Source: Escherichia phage HY02
Reading direction: 5' to 3' (one strand)
Length of the DNA stretch: 64,000 nucleotides
Sequence record: KM092515
Each line of letters begins with the position of its first letter. Position 1 is the stretch's first letter. The notes beneath the pieces were generated by a model, which saw only the letters and a list, made by a program, of their open reading frames with translations, was not told the DNA's origin and did no database searches. This document shows, one piece after another, positions 25,341 through 64,000 of the stretch. The position numbers and the translations under genes are program-made.

Positions 25341-25417
25341 CTCTGTTTAGCTCAGCTTGGTAGAGCGTTCCGTTTGGGGCGGTAAGGCCGGAGGTTCAAG
25401 TCCTCCAACAGAGACCA
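25341..25417 (+). tRNA. tRNA-Pro (UGG)
   Basis: acceptor CTCTGTT/AACAGAG, T-arm GGAGG-TTCAAGT-CCTCC, encoded CCA; anticodon loop TTTGGGG. Confidence 0.55.
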
Positions 25418-25424
25418 AATTAAT

Positions 25425-25502
25425 GTTCCAGTAGACAAAATGGTATAGTCACCACTCTTTCAAAGTGGATATTTGAGGGTTCAAATCCATTCTGGAACGC
25501 CA
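25425..25502 (+). tRNA. tRNA-Glu (UUC)
   Basis: acceptor GTTCCAG/CTGGAAC, anticodon arm CCACT-CTTTCAA-AGTGG, TTCAAAT T-loop with imperfect T-stem. Confidence 0.5.
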
Positions 25503-25509
25503 GTTTTGA

Positions 25510-25582
25510 CAGAAGACCAATTACAGCAAACTTAATCTTATTCATCTGAAGGTAAATCGGACAAAGAAGAGATTTGGTCTGG
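25510..25582 (+). ncRNA. Y-RNA-like element 1 (stem-closed, no tRNA-like domain)
   Basis: 5' CAGAAGACC-AATT...ACAGCAAA and 3' ATTT-GGTCTGG can pair as a terminal stem. Confidence 0.4.
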
Positions 25583-25593
25583 TCATTAAGAAT

Positions 25594-25670
25594 TGCGGGT
25601 ATAGAGAAAGGGCGTCTCACATGTCTCATTAGCATGGTATCGGCAGGTTCGACTCCTGCACCCGCCTCCA
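25594..25670 (+). tRNA. tRNA with CAU anticodon (Met or Ile2), atypical D region
   Basis: T-arm GCAGG-TTCGACT-CCTGC, acceptor TGCGGGT/ACCCGCC with 1-72 mismatch, anticodon arm CATGT-CTCATTA-GCATG, encoded CCA. Confidence 0.4.
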
Positions 25671-25676
25671 ATTTTG

Positions 25677-25736
25677 CAGAAGACCGTATTCAGCAATAAA
25701 CTACTTTTTGCGGATAAAAGAAAAAACACGGTCTGG
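25677..25736 (+). ncRNA. Y-RNA-like element 2
   Basis: 5' CAGAAGACC-GTAT...TCAGCAA and 3' ACAC-GGTCTGG; stem bases co-vary relative to element 1. Confidence 0.4.
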
Positions 25737-25747
25737 CAACGTATTAA

Positions 25748-25821
25748 GGTTAGGAAGCACATGAGGTATGTGCGGTCGCCTGTTAAGCGAATGGCACAGG
25801 GTTCGAATCCCTGACTAACCG
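25748..25821 (+). tRNA. tRNA-Asn (GUU)
   Basis: acceptor GGTTAGG/ACTAACC, D-arm GCAC..GTGC, anticodon loop CTGTTAA, T-arm CAGGG-TTCGAAT-CCCTG. Confidence 0.6.
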
Positions 25822-25832
25822 CAAATTTAAAT

Positions 25833-25920
25833 GTGTCGTTATCCCGTAGATGGTAGCGGTGGGGACTGTAAATCCCTTGTCATTGAGACTCGGTAGGTTC
25901 GACTCCTACACGGCACACCA
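25833..25920 (+). tRNA. tRNA-Tyr (GUA), long variable arm
   Basis: acceptor GTGTCGT/ACGGCAC, anticodon arm GGGGA-CTGTAAA-TCCCT, T-arm GTAGG-TTCGACT-CCTAC, encoded CCA. Confidence 0.6.
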
Positions 25921-25981
25921 ATTTTGAGAGGGCTATTTAGCCCCTCCCTTAAAGGGTTCTTACGAGTATCCTTTAAAGGAG

Positions 25982-26054
25982 CAGAAGACCAAATACAGCA
26001 AGTTATTTAAAATTTCAAGCCAATTCAATTTTGAAAATTTAAAACTTGGTCTGG
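25982..26054 (+). ncRNA. Y-RNA-like element 3 (YrlB-like, no tRNA-like domain)
   Basis: 5' CAGAAGACC-AAAT...ACAGCAAG and 3' CTT-GGTCTGG; interior holds an AT-rich palindrome. Confidence 0.4.
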
Positions 26055-26067
26055 CTCAACAAATTTA

Positions 26068-26199
26068 CAGAAGACCGTTTACAGCAAAACTTAAACAATC
26101 TATTTCTCCGGTAAAGAAAAGGCGAAGGTTCGATTCCTTCACTCGGCAGATGTCGAGTTGGTGTAATGGTAGCACTTAAGATGATAAACAACGGTCTGG
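26068..26199 (+). ncRNA. Y-RNA-like element 4 (YrlA-like) with permuted tRNA-like domain
   Basis: terminal stem AGACCGTT/AACGGTCT; internally T-arm GAAGG-TTCGATT-CCTTC (26124-26140), acceptor-like helix ACTCGGC/GTCGAGT capped by AGAT (26141-26158), D-arm GTGT-AATGGTA-GCAC (26161-26175); T-arm precedes D-arm. Confidence 0.55.
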
Positions 26200-26204
26200 T
26201 AATT

Positions 26205-26339
26205 ATCTTTGTAGATAAGTTATTAAGCTTACCTGTGAGTATGCGACCACAAAGGTGAAAGGGTAAATTCTAGATTTAAACCCAAAAAGACACATCGCTA
26301 CAGACCTTAAGCAAGTCTGGGTAGCTTATCTACAAAGAT
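26205..26339 (+). repeat. structured element closed by a perfect 15-bp inverted repeat
   Basis: ATCTTTGTAGATAAG (26205-26219) and CTTATCTACAAAGAT (26325-26339) flank about 105 nt containing hairpin CAGAC-CTTAAGCAA-GTCTG. Confidence 0.5.
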
Positions 26340-26347
26340 AATTTAAT

Positions 26348-26423
26348 GGAAGTGTAGCAGAATGGTGATGCGGCAGACTTTTAATCTGACAGGCGATGGG
26401 TTCGAATCCCTCCACTTCTACCA
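26348..26423 (+). tRNA. tRNA-Lys (UUU)
   Basis: acceptor GGAAGTG/CACTTCT, anticodon stem CAGA/TCTG with loop CTTTTAA, encoded CCA; T-stem has two mismatches shared with the CUU paralogue. Confidence 0.5.
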
Positions 26424-26427
26424 ATAT

Positions 26428-26504
26428 GGTTCAGTCGCAGATAAGGTAATGCAAGGGTCTCATAAGCCCTATGAATGTGGGTTCGATTCCCATCTGAACC
26501 TCCA
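26428..26504 (+). tRNA. tRNA-Met (CAU)
   Basis: acceptor GGTTCAG/CTGAACC, anticodon arm AGGGT-CTCATAA-GCCCT, T-arm GTGGG-TTCGATT-CCCAT, encoded CCA. Confidence 0.65.
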
Positions 26505-26505
26505 A

Positions 26506-26581
26506 GCTGGTATAGTTAAGAAGGTTATAACACTCCCCTGATAAGGGAACATCGGTGGTTCGATTCCACCTACCAGTACCA
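26506..26581 (+). tRNA. tRNA-Ile (GAU)
   Basis: acceptor GCTGGTA/TACCAGT, D-arm GTTA..TAAC, anticodon loop CTGATAA, T-arm GGTGG-TTCGATT-CCACC, encoded CCA. Confidence 0.65.
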
Positions 26582-26596
26582 ATTTCAATAAAGTTG

Positions 26597-26625
26597 TTGA
26601 CATTGAGATGTGACTACTTTATAGT
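26597..26625 (+). promoter_or_regulatory. internal sigma70-like promoter within the tRNA cluster
   Basis: TTGACA, 17-bp spacer, TATAGT. Confidence 0.5.
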
Positions 26626-26828
26626 AACCTTAGTTTTCGTTGCGTAGCGTCTATTTTGCAAATTTAAAATAAATGCAAACGACAATGTTTTTCTGGCAGT
26701 AGCTTGATAGGCTAAACACCAGTGAGGTCTTCCAATCCCTCATCAAAGAATTTGGCGTACTCGCCCACGGTATGATTAATAAGGTGGGCATCTTTAAGGG
26801 CTTTCTAAGAGAGTCTTTAAAGATTAAT

Positions 26829-26905
26829 GCACCCTTAGTTCAATTGGATAGAGCAACGGTCTTCTAAATCGTTAGTTACAGGTTCGAATCCTGTAGGGTG
26901 TGCCA
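26829..26905 (+). tRNA. tRNA-Arg (UCU)
   Basis: acceptor GCACCCT/AGGGTGT, anticodon arm ACGGT-CTTCTAA-ATCGT, T-arm ACAGG-TTCGAAT-CCTGT, encoded CCA. Confidence 0.65.
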
Positions 26906-27047
26906 ATTAGTTAGCAGATTACTTAGACGACCTAAGCGGGTCTTCCTGTAGGGAGGTGGTCTGTATCTCATGTTTTCCAGAACATGTAAATAATCTGAGA
27001 AGGGGCTTTACAGTGTTGAGATAATACGGTAAGCTTCGAATTATAGT

Positions 27048-27130
27048 ATGGGACGATGTTAAGACTCTAAGGCATGAGCAACGGCCTCCAAAACCGTTTC
27101 AAAGGGGTTCAACTCCTCCGTCCCATGCCA
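27048..27130 (+). tRNA. tRNA-like gene, possibly Trp (CCA); oversized D region
   Basis: acceptor ATGGGAC/GTCCCAT, T-loop TTCAACT, anticodon-like loop CTCCAAA, encoded CCA; 83 nt and D-arm not foldable by eye. Confidence 0.35.
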
Positions 27131-27143
27131 AAGTCTTATTAGG

Positions 27144-27231
27144 GGTAGGTAGCGGCTAATGGTAGCCAAACTGTCTTGAAAACAGTTGCCACTGTAGAGA
27201 TACGGTGAGGGTTCGACTCCTTTACTTACCG
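27144..27231 (+). tRNA. tRNA-Ser (UGA), long variable arm
   Basis: acceptor GGTAGGT/ACTTACC, D-stem GGC/GCC, anticodon arm AACTGT-CTTGAAA-ACAGTT, T-loop TTCGACT. Confidence 0.55.
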
Positions 27232-27489
27232 CCTAATAAGATTTTAAAGCCAAGCTTCATTCGGATGTTGCTTTGGTATCCCTCGTGTATTGTCGTACAC
27301 ACTGATAAAACACCTAGTAGGTGTCACGGAGAAGAGATAATATCAAGCTCTCCAAAGGTTCTAGTCACCGGATTAAACAAGACTATGCAAAGGCCTTTTT
27401 AGGTCTTTTTAGAGGGCTTCTAAGGTTATTACGGCTTGTTGTGGAACCTTGTTGCTTAGGTTCTTAGAAGTTCTCTAAAAAGATTTAAT

Positions 27490-27567
27490 GGGAGATTGAC
27501 GGTAATTGGTAAACCTACCATCCTTAGAAGTTGGTGTTTGAGGGTTCGAATCCCTTGTCTCCCACCA
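27490..27567 (+). tRNA. tRNA with UAG anticodon (Leu-type) but short variable arm
   Basis: acceptor GGGAGAT/GTCTCCC, T-arm GAGGG-TTCGAAT-CCCTT, anticodon loop CTTAGAA, encoded CCA. Confidence 0.4.
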
Positions 27568-27574
27568 AATTAAT

Positions 27575-27650
27575 GCAGGTGTAGCAAAATGGTTATGCGG
27601 CTGACTCTTAATCAGTAAGACGATGGGTTCAATTCCCTCCACCTGTACCA
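27575..27650 (+). tRNA. tRNA-Lys (CUU)
   Basis: acceptor GCAGGTG/CACCTGT, anticodon stem CTGA/TCAG with loop CTCTTAA, encoded CCA; body paralogous to 26348-26423. Confidence 0.5.
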
Positions 27651-27656
27651 AACAAT

Positions 27657-27732
27657 GGGGTCATAGTTTATATGGTTAAAATTCGAGTTTTGCAAACTTG
27701 GGAACTGAGTTCAATTCTCAGTGACTCCACCA
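27657..27732 (+). tRNA. tRNA-Ala (UGC)
   Basis: acceptor GGGGTCA/TGACTCC, anticodon loop TTTGCAA, T-arm CTGAG-TTCAATT-CTCAG, encoded CCA. Confidence 0.6.
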
Positions 27733-27738
27733 ATTAGT

Positions 27739-27813
27739 GCATCCATAGTTTAAACGGGAAAATTACAGTCTTCCAAACTGAGGTTGAGGGTTCGATTCCC
27801 TCTGGATGCTCCA
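27739..27813 (+). tRNA. tRNA-Gly (UCC)
   Basis: acceptor GCATCCA/TGGATGC, anticodon stem CAGT/ACTG with loop CTTCCAA, T-arm GAGGG-TTCGATT-CCCTC, encoded CCA. Confidence 0.65.
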
Positions 27814-27820
27814 AATTAAT

Positions 27821-27896
27821 GCTCCTATCGTATAATTGGCTATTACGGTTGCCTTGTAAGCAACTTATCAGGGTTCGAATCCTTGTGGGAGCACCA
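27821..27896 (+). tRNA. tRNA-Thr (UGU)
   Basis: acceptor GCTCCTA/TGGGAGC, anticodon arm GTTGC-CTTGTAA-GCAAC, T-arm CAGGG-TTCGAAT-CCTTG, encoded CCA. Confidence 0.7.
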
Positions 27897-27993
27897 ATTT
27901 AGAGGTCAAGTGAAAGACCGCTTTGAGTCAACTGAAGACCGTAACAAATTCCACGGAGTTGAGTTAGCGGCACAACTTCAGACCTCTTTTCAC

Positions 27994-28068
27994 ACTCGCT
28001 TAGTTTATATGGTAAAACATCACCCTTACAAGATGAAGAAAAAGGTTCAAGTCCTTTAGTGAGTACCA
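27994..28068 (+). tRNA. tRNA-Val (UAC)
   Basis: acceptor ACTCGCT/AGTGAGT, anticodon loop CTTACAA, T-arm AAAGG-TTCAAGT-CCTTT, encoded CCA. Confidence 0.6.
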
Positions 28069-28069
28069 T

Positions 28070-28147
28070 GTTCCAGTATCCCAATTGGCAGAGGATGCAA
28101 GCTCAAACCTTGTACTAGTGACGGTTCGAATCCGTCTTGGAACACCA
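28070..28147 (+). tRNA. tRNA with CAA anticodon (Leu-type) but short variable arm
   Basis: acceptor GTTCCAG/TTGGAAC, anticodon arm GCAAG-CTCAAAC-CTTGT, T-arm GACGG-TTCGAAT-CCGTC, encoded CCA. Confidence 0.45.
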
Positions 28148-28152
28148 ATTTT

Positions 28153-28228
28153 GCAGGATTAGTTCAAATGGATAGAGCAACAGTCTACGAAGCTGTTAAT
28201 AGGGGTTCGAATCCCTTATCCTGCGCCA
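28153..28228 (+). tRNA. tRNA-Arg (ACG)
   Basis: acceptor GCAGGAT/ATCCTGC, anticodon arm ACAGT-CTACGAA-GCTGT, T-arm AGGGG-TTCGAAT-CCCTT, encoded CCA. Confidence 0.65.
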
Positions 28229-28247
28229 ATTTAAAGAGGCTATTTAA

Positions 28248-28805
28248 ATGAGATACTTGAAGTATGCTTCATGGATTTTCTTAGCTTTGCTAGAACCATT
28301 GGCAGCAATCTTAGCAGTTATCTTAGCACCTTTTGTAGTTCCATTTTACAGTGAGAAGAAAGGACACTTACCTTTTGGATTCAGATGGATGGAGACATAT
28401 GACAACCTGATTGATGGTGATGAAGGTCACGTTAAAAGATGGGCTAAGATTAGAAAGATTGGTAAGCTTGGTGTCTATTTGCAGAGAGTTGGATGGCTCT
28501 GGAGAAACAAAGCTTATAACTTCTCTTACCATGTGTTAGGAAGAGATGTAAAAGATGTTACTAAGTGGAAAGGTAATATCAACGTAAGTTCTGACCCTGA
28601 AGATAATCAGACAGGTTATCTCCTAATGTGGAACAGTAATGCTTGGGGATTATTCGCTTTTATCCCATCAATTAAAGTCTTTGGTAAACAATTCTACTGG
28701 AGAATTTATGTTGGATGGAAGCTAAAAAGTGTTGTCCCAGAAGAAAGAGCATTCTCAAGGGAAAGAGTTATGTTGGCATTCTTTATTCATCCACTGAGAA
28801 AGTAA
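28248..28805 (+). CDS. hypothetical membrane protein embedded in the tRNA cluster
   Basis: 185-aa ORF with N-terminal hydrophobic helix (IFLALLEPLAAILAVILAPFVVPF); lies between tRNA-Arg and tRNA-Gln. Confidence 0.5.
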   Translation: MRYLKYASWIFLALLEPLAAILAVILAPFVVPFYSEKKGHLPFGFRWMETYDNLIDGDEGHVKRWAKIRKIGKLGVYLQRVGWLWRNKAYNFSYHVLGRDVKDVTKWKGNINVSSDPEDNQTGYLLMWNSNAWGLFAFIPSIKVFGKQFYWRIYVGWKLKSVVPEERAFSRERVMLAFFIHPLRK

Positions 28806-28813
28806 AGATTTAA

Positions 28814-28889
28814 AGGGGATTAGTTTACAAGGTTAAAACCTCGGTCTTTGAAATCGAAGAAGTTGGTTCAATTCCAACATCCCCCGCCA
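28814..28889 (+). tRNA. tRNA-Gln (UUG)
   Basis: acceptor AGGGGAT/ATCCCCC with unpaired 1-72, D-arm GTTT..AAAC, anticodon arm TCGGT-CTTTGAA-ATCGA, T-arm GTTGG-TTCAATT-CCAAC, encoded CCA. Confidence 0.65.
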
Positions 28890-28891
28890 AT

Positions 28892-28970
28892 GCTCCATTA
28901 CTCCAATTGGCAGAGAGGCCAGACTTAAAATCTGTGTTATGTATCGGTTCGAATCCGATATGGAGTACCA
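28892..28970 (+). tRNA. tRNA with UAA anticodon (Leu-type), atypical architecture
   Basis: acceptor GCTCCAT/ATGGAGT (alternative TACTCCA/TGGAGTA), anticodon stem CAGA/TCTG with loop CTTAAAA, T-arm ATCGG-TTCGAAT-CCGAT, encoded CCA. Confidence 0.45.
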
Positions 28971-28975
28971 AATTT

Positions 28976-29051
28976 AGCGGTATAGCATAACTGGCAATGC
29001 AGCAGTCTCTGAAGCTGTCTTATTAAGGTTCAAATCCTTATGCCGCTGCCA
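28976..29051 (+). tRNA. tRNA-Gln (CUG)
   Basis: acceptor AGCGGTA/TGCCGCT (A1-U72), D-arm GCAT..ATGC, anticodon arm GCAGT-CTCTGAA-GCTGT, T-arm TAAGG-TTCAAAT-CCTTA, encoded CCA. Confidence 0.55.
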
Positions 29052-29082
29052 CTTCTAAGGATTCTTACGAGAGTCCTTAGAA

Positions 29083-29158
29083 GTGGCCTTATCATAAATG
29101 GTAATGACCCATGCTGTGAACATGGTCTATACGGGTTCAAATCCCGTAGGTCACCCCA
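29083..29158 (+). tRNA. tRNA-His (GUG)
   Basis: acceptor GTGGCCT/AGGTCAC, anticodon arm CCATG-CTGTGAA-CATGG, T-arm ACGGG-TTCAAAT-CCCGT, encoded CCA. Confidence 0.7.
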
Positions 29159-29163
29159 ATTTA

Positions 29164-29240
29164 TAGTCCAAGTAGCTTATATGGTTAAAGCGCGTGTCTG
29201 AAAAACATGAGAAGAGGGTTCAAATCCCACTGGACTACCA
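29164..29240 (+). tRNA. tRNA-Phe (GAA)
   Basis: acceptor TAGTCCA/TGGACTA, D-stem GCTT/AAGC, anticodon arm CGTGT-CTGAAAA-ACATG, TTCAAAT T-loop; spacing between acceptor and D-stem is non-canonical. Confidence 0.5.
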
Positions 29241-29256
29241 ATTTCAAAGGTGCTTA

Positions 29257-29991
29257 ATGAAAGAGATGACAGAACAAGGTAAGGAGATTTTTAATCTCTT
29301 AAAAACTGGTAAAGGGTTTTCTAACCCCCTTATTACTGGTGCAGCAGTTCTCGGTGGAACCGTAGCTGCCTCTACATCACTTGTAAGCTCTATTAGCTCT
29401 GTATCAGACCCTACAGTAAAGGATAAGCTTGTTGCTGCTGGACTTACAACAGTTCTGCTTAACAGCTTTACCACGAGTCTGACAAGCACTACATCAACTA
29501 CCAAAACACTAACAGATTACGGTCAAAAGTCCATTGATGAGTTTTCATCACGTATGCAGGTAGCAAAAGGTTACTCTAATGTTATGGGTGCAGCAGGTGA
29601 ACAAGTTGGCTGTACACCATTTAGTGGTATTATGGGTGTTGCTACAGAGTATGGTCAAAAAGCTATTGATACGATTAACAGTGCACTAGATAGTGTTAAT
29701 GGTGTGTTAAGTGACTTACAAGATGCTATTGACAAAGGTCTTGATACTATTTCTGATTTAGCTGAGCAAGCTGTTAGTAAGATTAATGAAGGTATTTCAA
29801 AAATTACAGCTTATGCAGATGAAGTTGTGCAGATGATTGAAGAAGAAGCTGCTCTTATTGCAGAGTACCTTAAAACGAATATCAATGGGTTCTTAGCAGG
29901 TATCTTACCAGACTGGTTTGATGATGCTTGTAAAACTGGTGTGATTGACACTATTGCAACACCAGAAATGAAGAACGCATTACAGAAATAA
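29257..29991 (+). CDS. hypothetical Ser/Thr-rich protein
   Basis: ORF track start 29194 overlaps tRNA-Phe; in-frame ATG at 29257 follows GGTGCTTA, the same context as the terminase start. Confidence 0.5.
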   Translation: MKEMTEQGKEIFNLLKTGKGFSNPLITGAAVLGGTVAASTSLVSSISSVSDPTVKDKLVAAGLTTVLLNSFTTSLTSTTSTTKTLTDYGQKSIDEFSSRMQVAKGYSNVMGAAGEQVGCTPFSGIMGVATEYGQKAIDTINSALDSVNGVLSDLQDAIDKGLDTISDLAEQAVSKINEGISKITAYADEVVQMIEEEAALIAEYLKTNINGFLAGILPDWFDDACKTGVIDTIATPEMKNALQK

Positions 29992-29992
29992 T

Positions 29993-30085
29993 GGAAGATT
30001 AACCCTAAAAGGTAAGGGAGCAGTTTGCTAAACTGCCAGTAGCTGAGAAATCGGTGTACCAGTTCAAGTCTGGTATCTTCCTCCA
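29993..30085 (+). tRNA. tRNA-Ser (GCU), long variable arm
   Basis: acceptor GGAAGAT/ATCTTCC, D-stem CCC/GGG, anticodon arm GCAGT-TTGCTAA-ACTGC, T-arm ACCAG-TTCAAGT-CTGGT, encoded CCA. Confidence 0.65.
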
Positions 30086-30089
30086 ATTT

Positions 30090-30165
30090 GAATCCGTGAC
30101 AGAAATGGCTATGTGCCTGTCTGCAAAACAGGTTTATAAGGGTTCGAGTCCCTTCGGATTCTCCA
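30090..30165 (+). tRNA. tRNA-Cys (GCA)
   Basis: acceptor GAATCCG/CGGATTC, anticodon arm CCTGT-CTGCAAA-ACAGG, T-arm AAGGG-TTCGAGT-CCCTT, encoded CCA. Confidence 0.65.
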
Positions 30166-59492: not shown

Positions 59493-60593
59493 TTATTCGT
59501 AATCTCGAATAACTAACCCAACAGGGAACTGTAAAGAACCCTTACGAGTCATCTTCTGGAACTGAACCGTTAAAGGCTTCCCGATAAACTCTTCAGGATG
59601 CTCAGCAAGATACTGTTTCTTCTCGTGTGTAGTTTTCCATGAGACATCTACAAAGACGTTAGGAAGAGTCTCTACAACGAACTTGCCATGACCACGTTTA
59701 TCGGTCTTTACACCAGTCACTTTAAACTCTTCAGTGTGCATCTTCTTGTGCTTAATCAAGAAGTATGAACGGTGACAACACTCATAGAAGGAGTCTTCAG
59801 AGATTGAACGGTACATTGCACCTTCAAACTTAGCTTCAACCCACTTATCATGAGCTTCATCGAATTCTTCCCAAGAATTTACACGACGAGACTTAACAGG
59901 AACAACTTTACAGCCGTCTCTAAAGTCATTCAATGGTGAAGTCTCAATAATATCTCTACGCTCAGGCCACGTCTTAGTGCTGTCACAGATATCGTACCAG
60001 TAGAACTGGAGTAGATGTCGGTCTGGATTGTCAGCATTCTTAATCATAGACACAATATCTTCTAAGTCCCAACCATGAGCATAAATCTCACCATCAAAGT
60101 CTTCGACTTGTGGATGTAATTTAAGCAACAAAAGCAAATCTGGGATTAGTTCTGCTGGGACGTTGTAAACAGTATTCTCACGAGAATAAGCCGTGAAACT
60201 AACTGAATCAGCGTCTCTTGAAATTCTACAACGAACTCCATCAAGTTTTGGTTGAGCATCAGCAGGGAACTTCAGATACTTTGCATGACTAACCTTTGCA
60301 GCATCATGAGCAAGCTGTACACCTACCTTCTCAGTATTCTGTGCAGACTCTTTTGTGTAAGCATAACCTTTGCGGTCAACTTGCTTTTTATACTTTGCAG
60401 CAACTTCAAAGAGAGCTTGCTGTTCAGCGTTACGCTCATTCTTTTTACCGATGTTCTTAGGCTCTGCTGTATACTCTTCAAACATCATCTTGCCATTTTC
60501 TTTGCCATACGTGGTAACAACTTTGTCACCTACAGCAACACATGACCAGACGTTAAAAGAGCCATCTTTATTTTGTTTGTACAGTGTTGTCAT
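59493..60593 (-). CDS. lig: ATP-dependent DNA ligase
   Basis: adenylation motif I KLDGVR (KxDG) in a 366-aa ORF. Confidence 0.75.
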   Translation of the reverse strand: MTTLYKQNKDGSFNVWSCVAVGDKVVTTYGKENGKMMFEEYTAEPKNIGKKNERNAEQQALFEVAAKYKKQVDRKGYAYTKESAQNTEKVGVQLAHDAAKVSHAKYLKFPADAQPKLDGVRCRISRDADSVSFTAYSRENTVYNVPAELIPDLLLLLKLHPQVEDFDGEIYAHGWDLEDIVSMIKNADNPDRHLLQFYWYDICDSTKTWPERRDIIETSPLNDFRDGCKVVPVKSRRVNSWEEFDEAHDKWVEAKFEGAMYRSISEDSFYECCHRSYFLIKHKKMHTEEFKVTGVKTDKRGHGKFVVETLPNVFVDVSWKTTHEKKQYLAEHPEEFIGKPLTVQFQKMTRKGSLQFPVGLVIRDYE

Positions 60594-60796
60594 TTTCTCT
60601 TACCACCAATTTCTACGTCGATAACCTGAACATCACCAGCAACATCAAACTTATGAATGATGCTTTCCACAGTGTAAGTACAACCATCAATGCGAACCAA
60701 CTCACCTTCTCGTGGGATGATGGGATTACGTTGAGCTACGGTTGTAGTGGAGTGAACAACATCATAACAGTAGATATAGTTTACTAGGACTTCCAT
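60590..60796 (-). CDS. hypothetical protein
   Basis: 68-aa ORF coupled to ligase. Confidence 0.4.
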   Translation of the reverse strand: MEVLVNYIYCYDVVHSTTTVAQRNPIIPREGELVRIDGCTYTVESIIHKFDVAGDVQVIDVEIGGKRK

Positions 60797-60805
60797 ATCT
60801 TTTCC

Positions 60806-61024
60806 TTAAAATGATAAGTTAATGCTAATACGTTCACCCTTAAGGACTCCTGTACGGTCTCTTGCAATCTTACCGTCAACGATAATGATATGCGCAAACT
60901 TTAAAGACTCACTATTAAAACCTTTTACGAACTTACTAGGCATTACCACAATACACATCTCCTGAATCAACTCTGGAGTATAGCAATTGTCGTGAAGTTG
61001 CTGAATAACGTCTGAAAGTTTCAT
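60806..61024 (-). CDS. hypothetical protein
   Basis: 72-aa ORF. Confidence 0.4.
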   Translation of the reverse strand: MKLSDVIQQLHDNCYTPELIQEMCIVVMPSKFVKGFNSESLKFAHIIIVDGKIARDRTGVLKGERISINLSF

Positions 61025-61075
61025 ATAACCTCCTATATAAGATATTGTATAAGGTACTCTTCCCTGAGCACCTTG

Positions 61076-61609
61076 TCAAGATAGTTTTGCAAACTCTCCG
61101 TGGAGTTTTATAGCAGCTTCACAGTAAGCTTTGTGGGCTTCTTCAGGTGTGTCATGATAACCTAAAAACATCTTCTTACCTCTATAACTTATCTGTGCGA
61201 CCCACTTACCAGACTTCTTCTTAAGACTTACACCCTTGTACCCAGATTTATTGGTGACTAGCTTACCTTTATTCCAAGCACTTTGAAAGTCATCTGCTTC
61301 CCTTAAGTTTACAATCCTGTTGTCAAGTGAGTCTCCGTTGATGTGGTCAATGATACCTTTTGGCATCTTGCCATACACGTAAAGCCATGCGAGTCTGTGT
61401 GCTTTATGTGCTTTCTTGTCAAAATAGATACTAATCTGTTTATGACCACTTGAATCAGTCTGGATATTACCTGCCACCTTTCCTGCATAATTACTGTTAA
61501 AAACACTAACAGCTCTTGATTTACCTTCTCTACGAAGCCAAGTAAAGACCCCTGTTTCGGGGTCATAGTGTAGCAGCTCCTTTAAACGTTTTTGTAAAAT
61601 AAAATCCAT
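61076..61609 (-). CDS. HNH homing endonuclease with AP2 DNA-binding domain
   Basis: HNH motif HINGDSLDNRIVNLR; AP2-like SGYKGVS...GKWVAQI...LGYHDTPEEAHKAY. Confidence 0.8.
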   Translation of the reverse strand: MDFILQKRLKELLHYDPETGVFTWLRREGKSRAVSVFNSNYAGKVAGNIQTDSSGHKQISIYFDKKAHKAHRLAWLYVYGKMPKGIIDHINGDSLDNRIVNLREADDFQSAWNKGKLVTNKSGYKGVSLKKKSGKWVAQISYRGKKMFLGYHDTPEEAHKAYCEAAIKLHGEFAKLS

Positions 61610-61612
61610 TAA

Positions 61613-63940
61613 TCAATGTACCTCATACCAGCTCTTACCAACCTTTGCTGTACCAGTTACAAGTGTTTCTTTCCTCAAACCTAAGTTTTTTGAAGCTTGC
61701 CCATACATCCAGTCAGCAATTGCTTTCATATCATGTGTCATACCCTCTGGGCATTCCCAACTATTTTCGTCGTGATATGCCAGAAGTAACCTTGCTCCGA
61801 TAGCTGGTTTTCGAGCATTCAGTTTTGTCAGGCCATCTTCACAGGCTTTTCTTGCTGCTAGGTTGATGGCTTCATTCTGAATCTGTGCTTCCGAACTCAT
61901 CAGGAGGTAGTTCAGTAGTTTATGTGGAGATTTGCACCATATCCATGCTCCAGCGACCCTGATATAACCACCTTTAGCAATTGAAGAGTTCTTCCCAAAA
62001 ACCTCTTCCAGAGCCTTTTTAGACGCCTTAAAATCAGCTTCTAAGCTATCAAGTAACTTCTTAATCTTTGGCAGACGCATATAGTAAGTTTGTTTCGTCA
62101 ATGCACCTTCTTCCGTAGATGATGCCTTGATAGTTTTTGCAAACTTCTCATCTCCGGCTCCAAATAACAGGGCGTAGATGCCATTTTTGCTCTTCTTACG
62201 ACCTTTTGTAATCTCGTGAAGAAGTTCCTCATCCTGTGTCTCCCTGCAACGAACAATATCCTCTTCTTTGTTAAGACCAAAGTAAATACTGTTCAGTGTA
62301 TGCGCATCAGTCCCCGTGTAGACTTCATAGAGGTCATTTTCAGCATCATAGCGCAGATACTTGTCAGTTTCTGGGTTAAGATACTTGTCAAGATGCTTAC
62401 AGTAGTATCTACCATCATCTTGCTTAGTGAACTCTACTGACTCTTTACCTTCAGTTACTGCTTTAGTGAAGTCTTTATCACCCATAAAGTTACACAGTAA
62501 AACAAGCTGTGCAGAGTTCTGGTCAACTGAAACGATATTAGTACCTTCCTCACAAATCCAAACTTCCCTCATAGGTGCTCCATAGACAGCAGCACCAGAC
62601 GGTACGTTTACAATACCATATTGTGTCATACGTCCAGTTGAAGTACCAAACACCATTGCACCAGCACTAAGGCGACCATCAGGACGAATCTGGTTCAACC
62701 AACCTTTTTCATCATCTTTTGAGTTCTCAATAGTTCTGCGTCGGTGCATCAAAGTATAGTACTTAGCAATCTTCTGTCCAAGCTCACCTTCAATCGTATC
62801 ATAAGATGATTCAGTAAGTTTTGGTGAAGTCCTAATCAGACAAGGTTCAAGTAAGTCTGTGTACTTCTTAACAGACCAGTTATGCTCTATGTACTGTACA
62901 CCTTCATGCTCAACATAACTCAAACCACACCGTTCCACCATCTCATCCCACTTAGGATGTTTTGTAATCATCTTTTTATTGTCTTTGAAACGACAAACTT
63001 TGACAGGGCGACCATCTGAGTCTTTCTTGTAGTTCCAGTCATCTGGAATCCAACCAACTGATTTCAAGTAGTCTTTAACAACTGCTACCTGAGTCATACG
63101 AGAAACTTCAAACTCGATTGGTGTATATGGTGCATCAATCAAACCTGTGTAGCGACTTGACTCAAGCTCAAAGTGGTTAACAACATGGCTGTTATAGTAC
63201 TTCACAGTTTTAACTGTTTTTACTGGCTTCCAGTCTTTGCATTTCTTACCAATCTTTGCGTTCAACTCATTGCAAATTGCACGAGCATCCTTCATTGCTA
63301 CAAAGCCTTCCTTGTACTCTTCACCAGTTACAGAGTTGGTTGGTGTATAGCAATTCCGCTTTTCAATGTTAAAAATCTTTGTAGTTGGCTTACCAAATGG
63401 CTTGATTTCATATGTCTGCATCTCACCATTACGTACCTGCTGACGATACTTTGTCTTAGGATACTTGGTAATTCTCTTCAGTCCATCTGCATGACCAAAT
63501 GCTTCAACATACTCATTCCAAGCTTTTGCAAACTCTTCTCCAGTGACTTTACCTTTAGTCTTAATAGTTGGAGGGAGATGTGGTTCCACTTCTGAAGCAA
63601 GCTCATTAGTCAACTTGTCAAGTTCCTTTACATGGAACTCCATAAGCTCTTTATCAGCCTTCCAACCATTGATAGCTTGTTGACTCATCCAGAAAGATGT
63701 TTCTTTAGCTCGCATGTAGGTTTCATAAGTATCTATGCCACACTTCTTTAGCTTCAGATATTCATTATCCAATGCACGTTTAGTTTTGGCGTTAATACGG
63801 ATATCTTCCACAACACGAGTGAAGATTTCTGCATTCCACACACCCCAATGTTCAATCTCTGGTTTACGAACACCAACACGAGCACCCCATGCTGCCAAGC
63901 CATGAGCACCTTTATAGCCTTTTGGAGTTGGTCTATCCAT
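61613..63940 (-). CDS. DNA polymerase, family A
   Basis: motif A-like VSVDQNSAQL, motif B-like RKKSKNGIYALLFG, motif C LLAYHDE; 775 aa, start near the window edge. Confidence 0.8.
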   Translation of the reverse strand: MDRPTPKGYKGAHGLAAWGARVGVRKPEIEHWGVWNAEIFTRVVEDIRINAKTKRALDNEYLKLKKCGIDTYETYMRAKETSFWMSQQAINGWKADKELMEFHVKELDKLTNELASEVEPHLPPTIKTKGKVTGEEFAKAWNEYVEAFGHADGLKRITKYPKTKYRQQVRNGEMQTYEIKPFGKPTTKIFNIEKRNCYTPTNSVTGEEYKEGFVAMKDARAICNELNAKIGKKCKDWKPVKTVKTVKYYNSHVVNHFELESSRYTGLIDAPYTPIEFEVSRMTQVAVVKDYLKSVGWIPDDWNYKKDSDGRPVKVCRFKDNKKMITKHPKWDEMVERCGLSYVEHEGVQYIEHNWSVKKYTDLLEPCLIRTSPKLTESSYDTIEGELGQKIAKYYTLMHRRRTIENSKDDEKGWLNQIRPDGRLSAGAMVFGTSTGRMTQYGIVNVPSGAAVYGAPMREVWICEEGTNIVSVDQNSAQLVLLCNFMGDKDFTKAVTEGKESVEFTKQDDGRYYCKHLDKYLNPETDKYLRYDAENDLYEVYTGTDAHTLNSIYFGLNKEEDIVRCRETQDEELLHEITKGRKKSKNGIYALLFGAGDEKFAKTIKASSTEEGALTKQTYYMRLPKIKKLLDSLEADFKASKKALEEVFGKNSSIAKGGYIRVAGAWIWCKSPHKLLNYLLMSSEAQIQNEAINLAARKACEDGLTKLNARKPAIGARLLLAYHDENSWECPEGMTHDMKAIADWMYGQASKNLGLRKETLVTGTAKVGKSWYEVH

Positions 63941-64000
63941 CCATTGAACACGAGACTGAATAAGAGAATCCTGAAAGAAATTACTCCACGGCTTACACTT

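Follow-up and report, generated by a model that had tools for sequence, protein, structure and literature searches.

A short ORF lies directly behind the DNA polymerase gene in the 64,000-nt stretch of phage DNA that was analyzed here (the window), and it raises the question whether it is a selfish element and how it might act on its neighbor. On comparison of sequences, the gene, termed class A, is probably a free-standing HNH-AP2 homing endonuclease gene (roughly three chances in four). Its product would cut the end of the polymerase gene of related phages, and the gene would spread through the repair of that cut. The features of the locus are collected in Table 1.

Table 1. Positions of the features of the locus within the window
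Feature	Position	Strand	Basis or remark
Cluster of 23 tRNA genes	25341-30162	+	
ATP-dependent DNA ligase gene	59493-60593		
Small conserved ORF	60590-60796		between endonuclease and ligase genes
Small conserved ORF	60806-61024		between endonuclease and ligase genes
Conserved intergenic element (TTGACAAGGTGCTCAGGGAAGAGTACCTTATACAAT...GGAGG), downstream border of insertion	61025-61079	-	occupied versus empty sites
Candidate class A HNH-AP2 homing endonuclease gene, free-standing, 177 aa	61076-61609	-	ATG start, TGA stop
Last 79 nt of the gene (24 codons, EEAHKAYCEAAxKLHGEFAKLS)	61076-61154	-	near-identical in four classes
AP2 DNA-binding domain, aa 122-171	61097-61246	-	
HNH_3 motif, aa 69-104 (HRLAW, D88-H89, N97, N101-L102-R103)	61298-61405	-	Pfam
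Conserved 36-nt patch with perfect GC hairpin (61547-61564, GACCCCGAAACAGGGGTC), then TTTACTT	61538-61573	-	terminator scan
Polymerase/endonuclease junction: stop TGA 61613-61615, 3-nt spacer, GAGGT 61620-61624	61610-61624	-	sequence
Last 554 nt of polymerase gene, haplotype block co-inherited with the endonuclease gene, presumed cleavage-target region	61613-62166	-	
DNA polymerase gene, family A, 5' end outside the window	61613-64000	-	
Empty group I intron insertion site, polymerase motif B (KNGIYALLFGAG)	62167-62172	-	insertion mapping

The gene, its product and its surroundings

The sequence-only reading had assigned to the ORF an HNH nuclease motif and an AP2 DNA-binding domain, and this assignment was borne out by Pfam, PHROGs, the catalytic residues and the fold. 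HNH_3 (PF13392) matched with 54.5 bits against a cut-off of 24.8 (E 9.2e-15), AP2 (PF00847) matched over its curated cut-off (E 2.2e-12), and the whole protein was assigned to phrog_99, "HNH endonuclease" (E 3.8e-71). Of 7795 homologues retrieved from a database at E<=1e-5, most have both domains. Residue conservation was read from an alignment of 51 homologues of similar length. D88, H89, N101, L102 and R103 were invariant in this alignment, and H71-R72-L73-A74-W75 and N97 were at least 90% conserved; the motif cited earlier for the HNH assignment, HINGDSLDNRIVNLR, occupies aa 89-103. The HRxxW...DHxNG...N...NLR signature of HNH_3 is present, so the catalytic histidine (general base) and the metal-ligand asparagine are intact, and both are kept within the beta-beta-alpha fold. 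In the confidently predicted structure, the N-terminal and HNH half is I-HmuI-like and the C-terminal half is an AP2 DNA-binding domain with a three-stranded sheet plus helix; the protein would act as a nuclease. A sequence search of solved structures returned plant AP2 domains only, and the HNH half was recognized by fold comparison. The dN/dS ratio (Nei-Gojobori) was 0.16 between class A and the related class A' (see below) and 0.16-0.32 within class A, which indicates a protein under purifying selection and no dead relic. No paralogues of the gene were found elsewhere in the 64,000-nt window by tblastn and the family HMM.

The window belongs to a Felix O1-like phage (Felixounavirus). The endonuclease gene is intergenic, has its own reading frame and lies outside any intron or intein; Rfam detected no introns in the window. 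Its free-standing position beside the polymerase gene, also claimed from the sequence alone, was confirmed: it begins 3 nt past the polymerase stop, and two small ORFs follow before the ligase gene. Read along the coding strand, the sequence of the occupied site is ...TAT GAG GTA CAT TGA tta ATG GAT TTT... at the start of the 177 codons and ...AAA CTA TCT TGA CAAGGTGCTCAGGGAAGAG... at the 3' end of the gene, where the stop codon TGA sits within the TTGACA of the intergenic element. This element is 55 nt long, precedes the next ORF and is unique within the window. The polymerase ORF of 775 aa might be taken for a split or truncated gene. This was rejected, since the ORF is merely cut off where the window ends: its frame stays open up to position 64000 and is collinear with the 909-aa polymerases.

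Several further features of the surroundings were recorded. A tRNA gene cluster such as the one here (23 genes) is a usual feature of Felix O1-like phages. Between the endonuclease and ligase genes, the count of small ORFs varied, from two in the window up to seven in BPS17W1; for this comparison, positions 60797-61075 of the window were set against genomes L003, L004, L007, L008 and L010. In the window, the endonuclease gene directly abuts a homologue of orf72, and several relatives have an extra ORF of ~210 nt (MSHRGRT...) at that place.

For expression of the gene, an own promoter was considered and rejected, as no sigma-70-like site was seen on the minus strand between the polymerase and endonuclease genes. 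A downstream TTGACA-N22-TATACAAT was examined as a repeated phage promoter and was discarded; it occurs only once in the window. Given the lack of an own promoter and the 3-nt distance from the polymerase stop, the gene is most likely expressed via polymerase transcription, that is, co-transcribed with the polymerase gene. Translation would begin from GAGGT, a Shine-Dalgarno-like sequence in the last polymerase codons, 10 nt before the endonuclease ATG. GAGGT was also found in some polymerase genes with an empty site behind them. Concealment of the start codon by RNA structure was rejected, the fold of 61535-61665 being no better than that of shuffled sequences (z -0.28).

Carriers, empty sites and competing classes

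The locus is common to about 260 related phage records. The endonuclease gene was matched over at least 80% of its length in 56 of these, and any part of it in 146. In tblastn, 57 records showed at least 60% aa identity (40 records at 95-99%, 14 at 80-90% and 3 at 60-80%). The gene itself is already known: dozens of GenBank entries list near-identical copies (up to 98.9% nt identity) under the name of HNH or homing endonuclease. An empty-junction probe from phage VpaE1 matched 207 records, and 60 evenly spaced rows were inspected. The junction was uninterrupted in 26 of the 60, from which about 90 empty sites are estimated. Five fetched genomes had a clean empty site (VpaE1, EC6, SP2, UAB_Phi87 and OPT-SAL01), at which the polymerase stop is followed by TTAGTA and TTGACAAGG...; the sequence in these five is ...GTA CAC TAA TTAGTA TTGACAAGGTGCTCA... 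Comparison of occupied and empty sites shows that nothing but the ORF is inserted in the window. The sequence-only reading had taken the ORF for a selfish element and had proposed presence or absence in related genomes as a check. The distribution agrees with that view: the gene is sporadic at one locus among close relatives, with a precise empty site, and is far from universal (56 of about 260 records, or about a fifth, with about 90 empty), and other HNH-AP2 genes sit in the same slot.

In RPN213, the copy (L009 4501-5035) has one additional G in the GGGG run of a hairpin described below, which shifts the frame at codon 20. The extra base reflects either decay of this copy or an error in sequencing the homopolymer; a frameshifted copy is what would be expected of a dispensable selfish gene. 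Separately, the match in D1-2 (MN481367.1) spans 535 rather than 534 bases. Three records with other host labels, MG065664.1 and MG065668.1 ("Campylobacter phage A132/A126") as well as GU169904.1 ("Staphylococcus phage SA1"), contain sequence of the Felix O1 type with 95-99% identity to enterobacterial phages at the locus. Since these labels look out of keeping with the rest of the group, the assemblies may be mixed or mislabelled.

The frameshifted copy and the purifying selection could also be read in another way. The gene might no longer be mobile and might be a decaying relic, or encode a domesticated DNA-binding or nicking protein, such as an AP2-type regulator or a replication or packaging helper. 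Purifying selection is compatible with a useful function as well, and AP2 domains are transcription factors in plants. However, about 80% of the close relatives are without the class A gene and about a third have an empty slot, which argues that the gene is not needed, and the catalytic residues are all kept. Moreover, the gene and the adjoining polymerase end are near-identical across genomes that are otherwise 89-97% identical, pointing to recent horizontal spread, and the terminase gene is not adjacent, unlike the situation of packaging-type HNH proteins. We consider this explanation very improbable and retain that of an active homing endonuclease gene.

In the remaining genomes, other HNH-AP2 genes occupy exactly the same slot, with at least 63 records of class B or C. 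Class B (167 aa, 18 records) includes ORF218 of Felix O1 and tootiki_7, and class C (170 aa, 45 records) is found in DE7 and phiWec177. A further class, A' (175 aa), is present in ev78 and phiSUSP1 and is 86% identical in aa sequence to the window protein. The proteins of classes A, B and C are 40-52% identical pairwise. In the protein alignment, the last 24 residues are identical across A, A', B and C, and many records match only positions 1-79 of the query, at 95-98%. The near-identical 79-nt tail in four classes thus marks a recombination boundary. Class C genes are found on the class A polymerase haplotype from 61650 onward; the sequences switch between A and C within the final ~40 nt of polymerase on one side and within the final ~80-100 nt of the endonuclease gene on the other. 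By its sequence, the switch looks like a cassette replacement of one endonuclease gene by another.

A second feature is common to the classes. Codons 16-21 (DPETGV) are written as a perfect 6-bp GC-rich stem, which all four classes (A, A', B and C) keep unchanged; class B has a different loop. The patch around it is identical in 36 of 36 nt in an EC6 paralogue with 41% protein identity at a different locus (L097 1273-1764). The full stem was found in none of 52 diverse IMG/VR homologues encoding the same peptide motif, and on this ground a by-product of the peptide YDPETGVF was rejected. The pattern points to a nucleotide-level constraint or else to conversion between the endonuclease genes within this group of phages. 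Nor is the hairpin an established intrinsic terminator, as classes B and C have not kept the U-tract. In T4 mobE, which is likewise promoterless, an internal terminator hairpin limits the transcript (PMC2790892). By analogy, the hairpin of the window gene is a possible expression attenuator; terminator function is shown for mobE and suspected here.

The polymerase end and the presumed target

The window was compared with 16 fetched relatives (17 genomes in total); as these are phylogenetically related, linkage counts are not independent events. Over the endonuclease gene, the six class A carriers matched the window at 97-99%, and over the terminal 554 nt of polymerase at 95-99.5%; for the other segments (ligase, small ORFs and the rest of the polymerase gene), the identity was about 89-97%. 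For non-carriers, the corresponding values were 72-79% over the terminal 554 nt, 85-97% over the remainder of the polymerase gene and about 90-92% over the ligase gene. In a 100-nt profile, the DNA neighboring the block was mostly 86-99% identical in carriers and non-carriers. The block itself was 94-100% identical among class A and C carriers versus 68-81% to all others. The window differs at 34 positions from all eight genomes without class A or C; about 30 of the 34 lie within 61613-~62050 and are common to every class A and C genome. Database-wide, the block was bimodal, with 50 records at >=90% and 240 at 60-80%.

A pairwise matrix of the block resolved four haplotype groups, with identities of 84-100% within and 68-81% between groups. 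Group 1 comprises the class A and class C carriers and group 2 the class B carriers. Groups 3 and 4 consist of empty-site genomes, one of them also including the A' carrier ev78, whose polymerase haplotype is otherwise seen with empty sites. The polymerase-end proteins of the groups are roughly 70-90% identical, judged by eye, so most differences are synonymous. Within the 17 genomes, the endonuclease gene is in complete linkage with a private, divergent polymerase-end haplotype. Class C is found on the same haplotype, which is thus not exclusive to the class A gene. At the population level, the flank of the gene behaves as co-converted DNA, being linked to it and above the genome background in identity. 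On the other side, the linkage ends abruptly, at or inside the 3' end of the endonuclease gene. Such a one-sided tract is expected from a break on the polymerase side that is repaired from a carrier, and a tract of the same kind has been described for the free-standing T4 endonucleases SegG and MobE (PMC2988022, PMC2790892). As far as the sequences go, the pattern is the one expected of a free-standing homing endonuclease whose gene carries neighboring polymerase sequence along with it. For the suggestion of the sequence-only reading that the element may act on polymerase alleles of related phages, the linkage and its abrupt end give indirect support.

The recognition site could instead be the empty junction itself (polymerase stop, TTAGTA, TTGACAAGG), which insertion would destroy in the manner of intron-encoded enzymes, with the polymerase haplotype hitchhiking or being the work of other elements. 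Insertion of four classes at exactly the same nucleotide position would agree with this, as would the high conservation of the junction sequence among empty sites. However, a cut at the junction predicts roughly symmetric co-conversion, and the linkage extends at least 440 nt into the polymerase gene and ends at or inside the 3' end of the endonuclease gene. In addition, characterized free-standing phage endonucleases usually cut away from their insertion site (PMC2988022). A junction target is therefore quite unlikely in our view, and a target within the polymerase end is preferred.

In several relatives, the polymerase gene is interrupted by a group I intron. RF00028 was detected by Rfam in REP8 and tootiki (61.7 and 61.3 bits), and the intron loci in relatives lie at L004 6024-6307 and L006 4584-4867. 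An ORF-less intron of 268 nt is present in REP8, BPS17W1, RPN213, GEP101 and tootiki, and that of phiWec177 is probably ORF-less too, judged from the same 229-bp annotated gap. A published announcement of phage Meda also describes an endonuclease-less intron in the polymerase gene (PMC6486253). Longer introns of ~780-805 nt with an endonuclease VII-like ORF were found in VpaE1, EC6, SP2 and OPT-SAL01, and DE7 likewise has an annotated ORF in the polymerase gap. In this small, non-independent sample, a free-standing endonuclease gene follows the polymerase gene in six of six genomes with the ORF-less intron (phiWec177 included), and the slot is empty in four of five with the ORF-bearing intron. 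A strict rule that an ORF-bearing intron excludes a downstream endonuclease gene was rejected, being broken by phage DE7. The pattern hints at trans or collaborative homing, or at turnover of endonuclease genes (compare PMC10448857).

The class A enzyme might accordingly target the intron insertion site in polymerase motif B, 555 nt away, and mobilize the ORF-less intron of relatives as well. That intron lies precisely where the co-inherited polymerase block has its upstream edge, which would suit such a target, as would the counts given above; collaborative or trans homing is moreover a concept found in the literature (PMC2988022, PMC10448857), with I-TslI of T3-like phages and MobE of T4 as examples. 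An ORF-less intron with an adjacent endonuclease gene is indeed found in REP8, BPS17W1, RPN213 and GEP101. In the window, the polymerase gene is uninterrupted at this site. The window has the endonuclease gene without the intron, and collaborative homing is for this reason kept as an alternative, rather unlikely, and not as the main reading. Independently of the target, the divergence of the polymerase end could be partly the work of other mobile elements, for example the intron with its own endonuclease 555 nt away.

We thus return to homing with a target in the polymerase end, for which the following course is proposed. In a mixed infection, the endonuclease would nick or cut the DNA of a related phage that lacks the gene or carries another class. 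The cut site would lie within or beside the terminal ~550 bp of the polymerase gene. Once the lesion is repaired by recombination with the carrier genome, the victim would hold the endonuclease gene along with the polymerase segment next to it; at its far end, the repair tract would resolve either in the conserved 79-nt tail or in the intergenic element. The polymerase allele of the carrier is presumed to be resistant on account of its many, mostly synonymous, differences. In this scheme the nuclease activity, the target site, the choice between a nick and a double-strand cut, and self-immunity are inferences only. In the literature, no cleavage assay or cross was found for the class A protein or a close relative.

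Two further observations were made in the comparison. A second bimodal patch is present in the 5' part of the ligase gene (59900-60300). At 60000-60200, Felix O1, BPS17W1, bumzen, GEP101 and UAB_Phi87 are 92-100% identical to the window and other relatives 60-90%; in a separate patch at 59900-60000, Felix O1, bumzen and UAB_Phi87 are 73-76% identical. The ligase is annotated as two or three pieces in some relatives, and this region looks mosaic too. In addition, VpaE1_ev78 (L005) has an intronless polymerase gene and a class A' gene, and VpaE1 (L002) has an ORF-bearing intron and an empty slot. A gain of the gene by laboratory evolution from VpaE1 to VpaE1_ev78 was considered and rejected. VpaE1_ev78 is 79-95% identical to VpaE1 across the region and is no simple derivative of it; no paper on VpaE1_ev78 was found in the literature.

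A wider reading joins cassette exchange, a role as weapon, the upkeep of polymerase alleles and a common hairpin control, and as a whole it is tentative, with the odds against it. At least four HNH-AP2 classes with different DNA-recognition surfaces may replace one another in the slot behind the polymerase gene; exchange would break within the final ~40 nt of that gene on one side and within the common 79-nt tail of the endonuclease gene on the other. Each class would serve as a weapon in mixed infections, and together these weapons would maintain several 20-30% diverged C-terminal polymerase alleles within one phage genus. The hairpin, present in the endonuclease genes and in paralogues at other loci, would be a common control element, an attenuator by analogy with that of T4 mobE.

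Relation to known endonucleases

HNH-AP2 endonucleases were described in 2004 from Trichodesmium, Tetrahymena, phage RB49 and phage Felix O1 (Magnani, Sjolander and Hake, Plant Cell, as related in PMC4237383 and PMC10448857), and the Felix O1 genome is reported to hold six copies of HNH homing endonucleases (PMC3185647). The window protein has the same arrangement of N-terminal HNH and C-terminal AP2 domains and comes from the same phage lineage. Compared with Felix O1 ORF218, which is found in the same slot, it belongs to a different class (49% aa identity). No HNH-AP2 enzyme from a Felix O1-like phage with a mapped cleavage site was found in the literature. Genes of the HNH-AP2 type often adjoin DNA polymerase genes, in 29% of cases in one survey, the main text of which does not name Felix O1-like phages (Barth, Dunham and Seed 2023, PMC10448857). 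For the IPA-HNH genes of ICP1-like vibriophages, cognate endonucleases are swapped at the same location, with recombination boundaries at the endonuclease gene (PMC10448857). The window gene has in common with these the HNH and AP2 domains, the free-standing organization and the frequent polymerase neighborhood. However, the HNH domains of ICP1 are too divergent for Pfam HNH_3, whereas the window protein is a canonical match.

A functional parallel is offered by MobE of T4, a promoterless free-standing HNH enzyme that nicks the neighboring nrdB and mobilizes flanking DNA (Wilson and Edgell 2009, PMC2790892). The likeness lies in action on an adjacent essential gene and in the mobilization of flanking DNA, including a neighboring intron; MobE differs in its DNA-binding region, which is not AP2, and in its neighbor, nrdB rather than polymerase. 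I-HmuI of SPO1 (PDB 1U3E) is an HNH nicking endonuclease with 20% identity to the window protein, but it is intron-encoded and has helical C-terminal DNA-binding modules in place of AP2. Of the T7 gp3.8 type, the T7 "putative NHN endonuclease" aligns to aa 66-176 with 34% identity. For T3-like phages, it has been reported that the enzyme from a free-standing HNH gene close to the DNA polymerase gene cuts where an intron without endonuclease is inserted (Bonocora and Shub 2009, as related in PMC10448857 and PMC2988022). Unlike that collaborative system of T3/T7-like phages, the window has a polymerase gene without an intron, and the link to the intron of its relatives is a statistical hint only.

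The comparative pattern is a clean natural example of homing endonuclease genes shaping essential genes. One slot is contested by at least four classes and is empty in other genomes, a mostly synonymous, 20-30% diverged C-terminal polymerase allele travels along, an optional intron lies 555 nt away, and a hairpin is conserved. The locus is an accessible system outside T4 in which to study homing, collaborative homing and the turnover of endonuclease genes. Biocontrol of Salmonella and E. coli makes wide use of Felix O1-like phages, which are mixed in cocktails; the endonuclease genes would therefore bias the survival of polymerase alleles and neighboring markers in co-infections.
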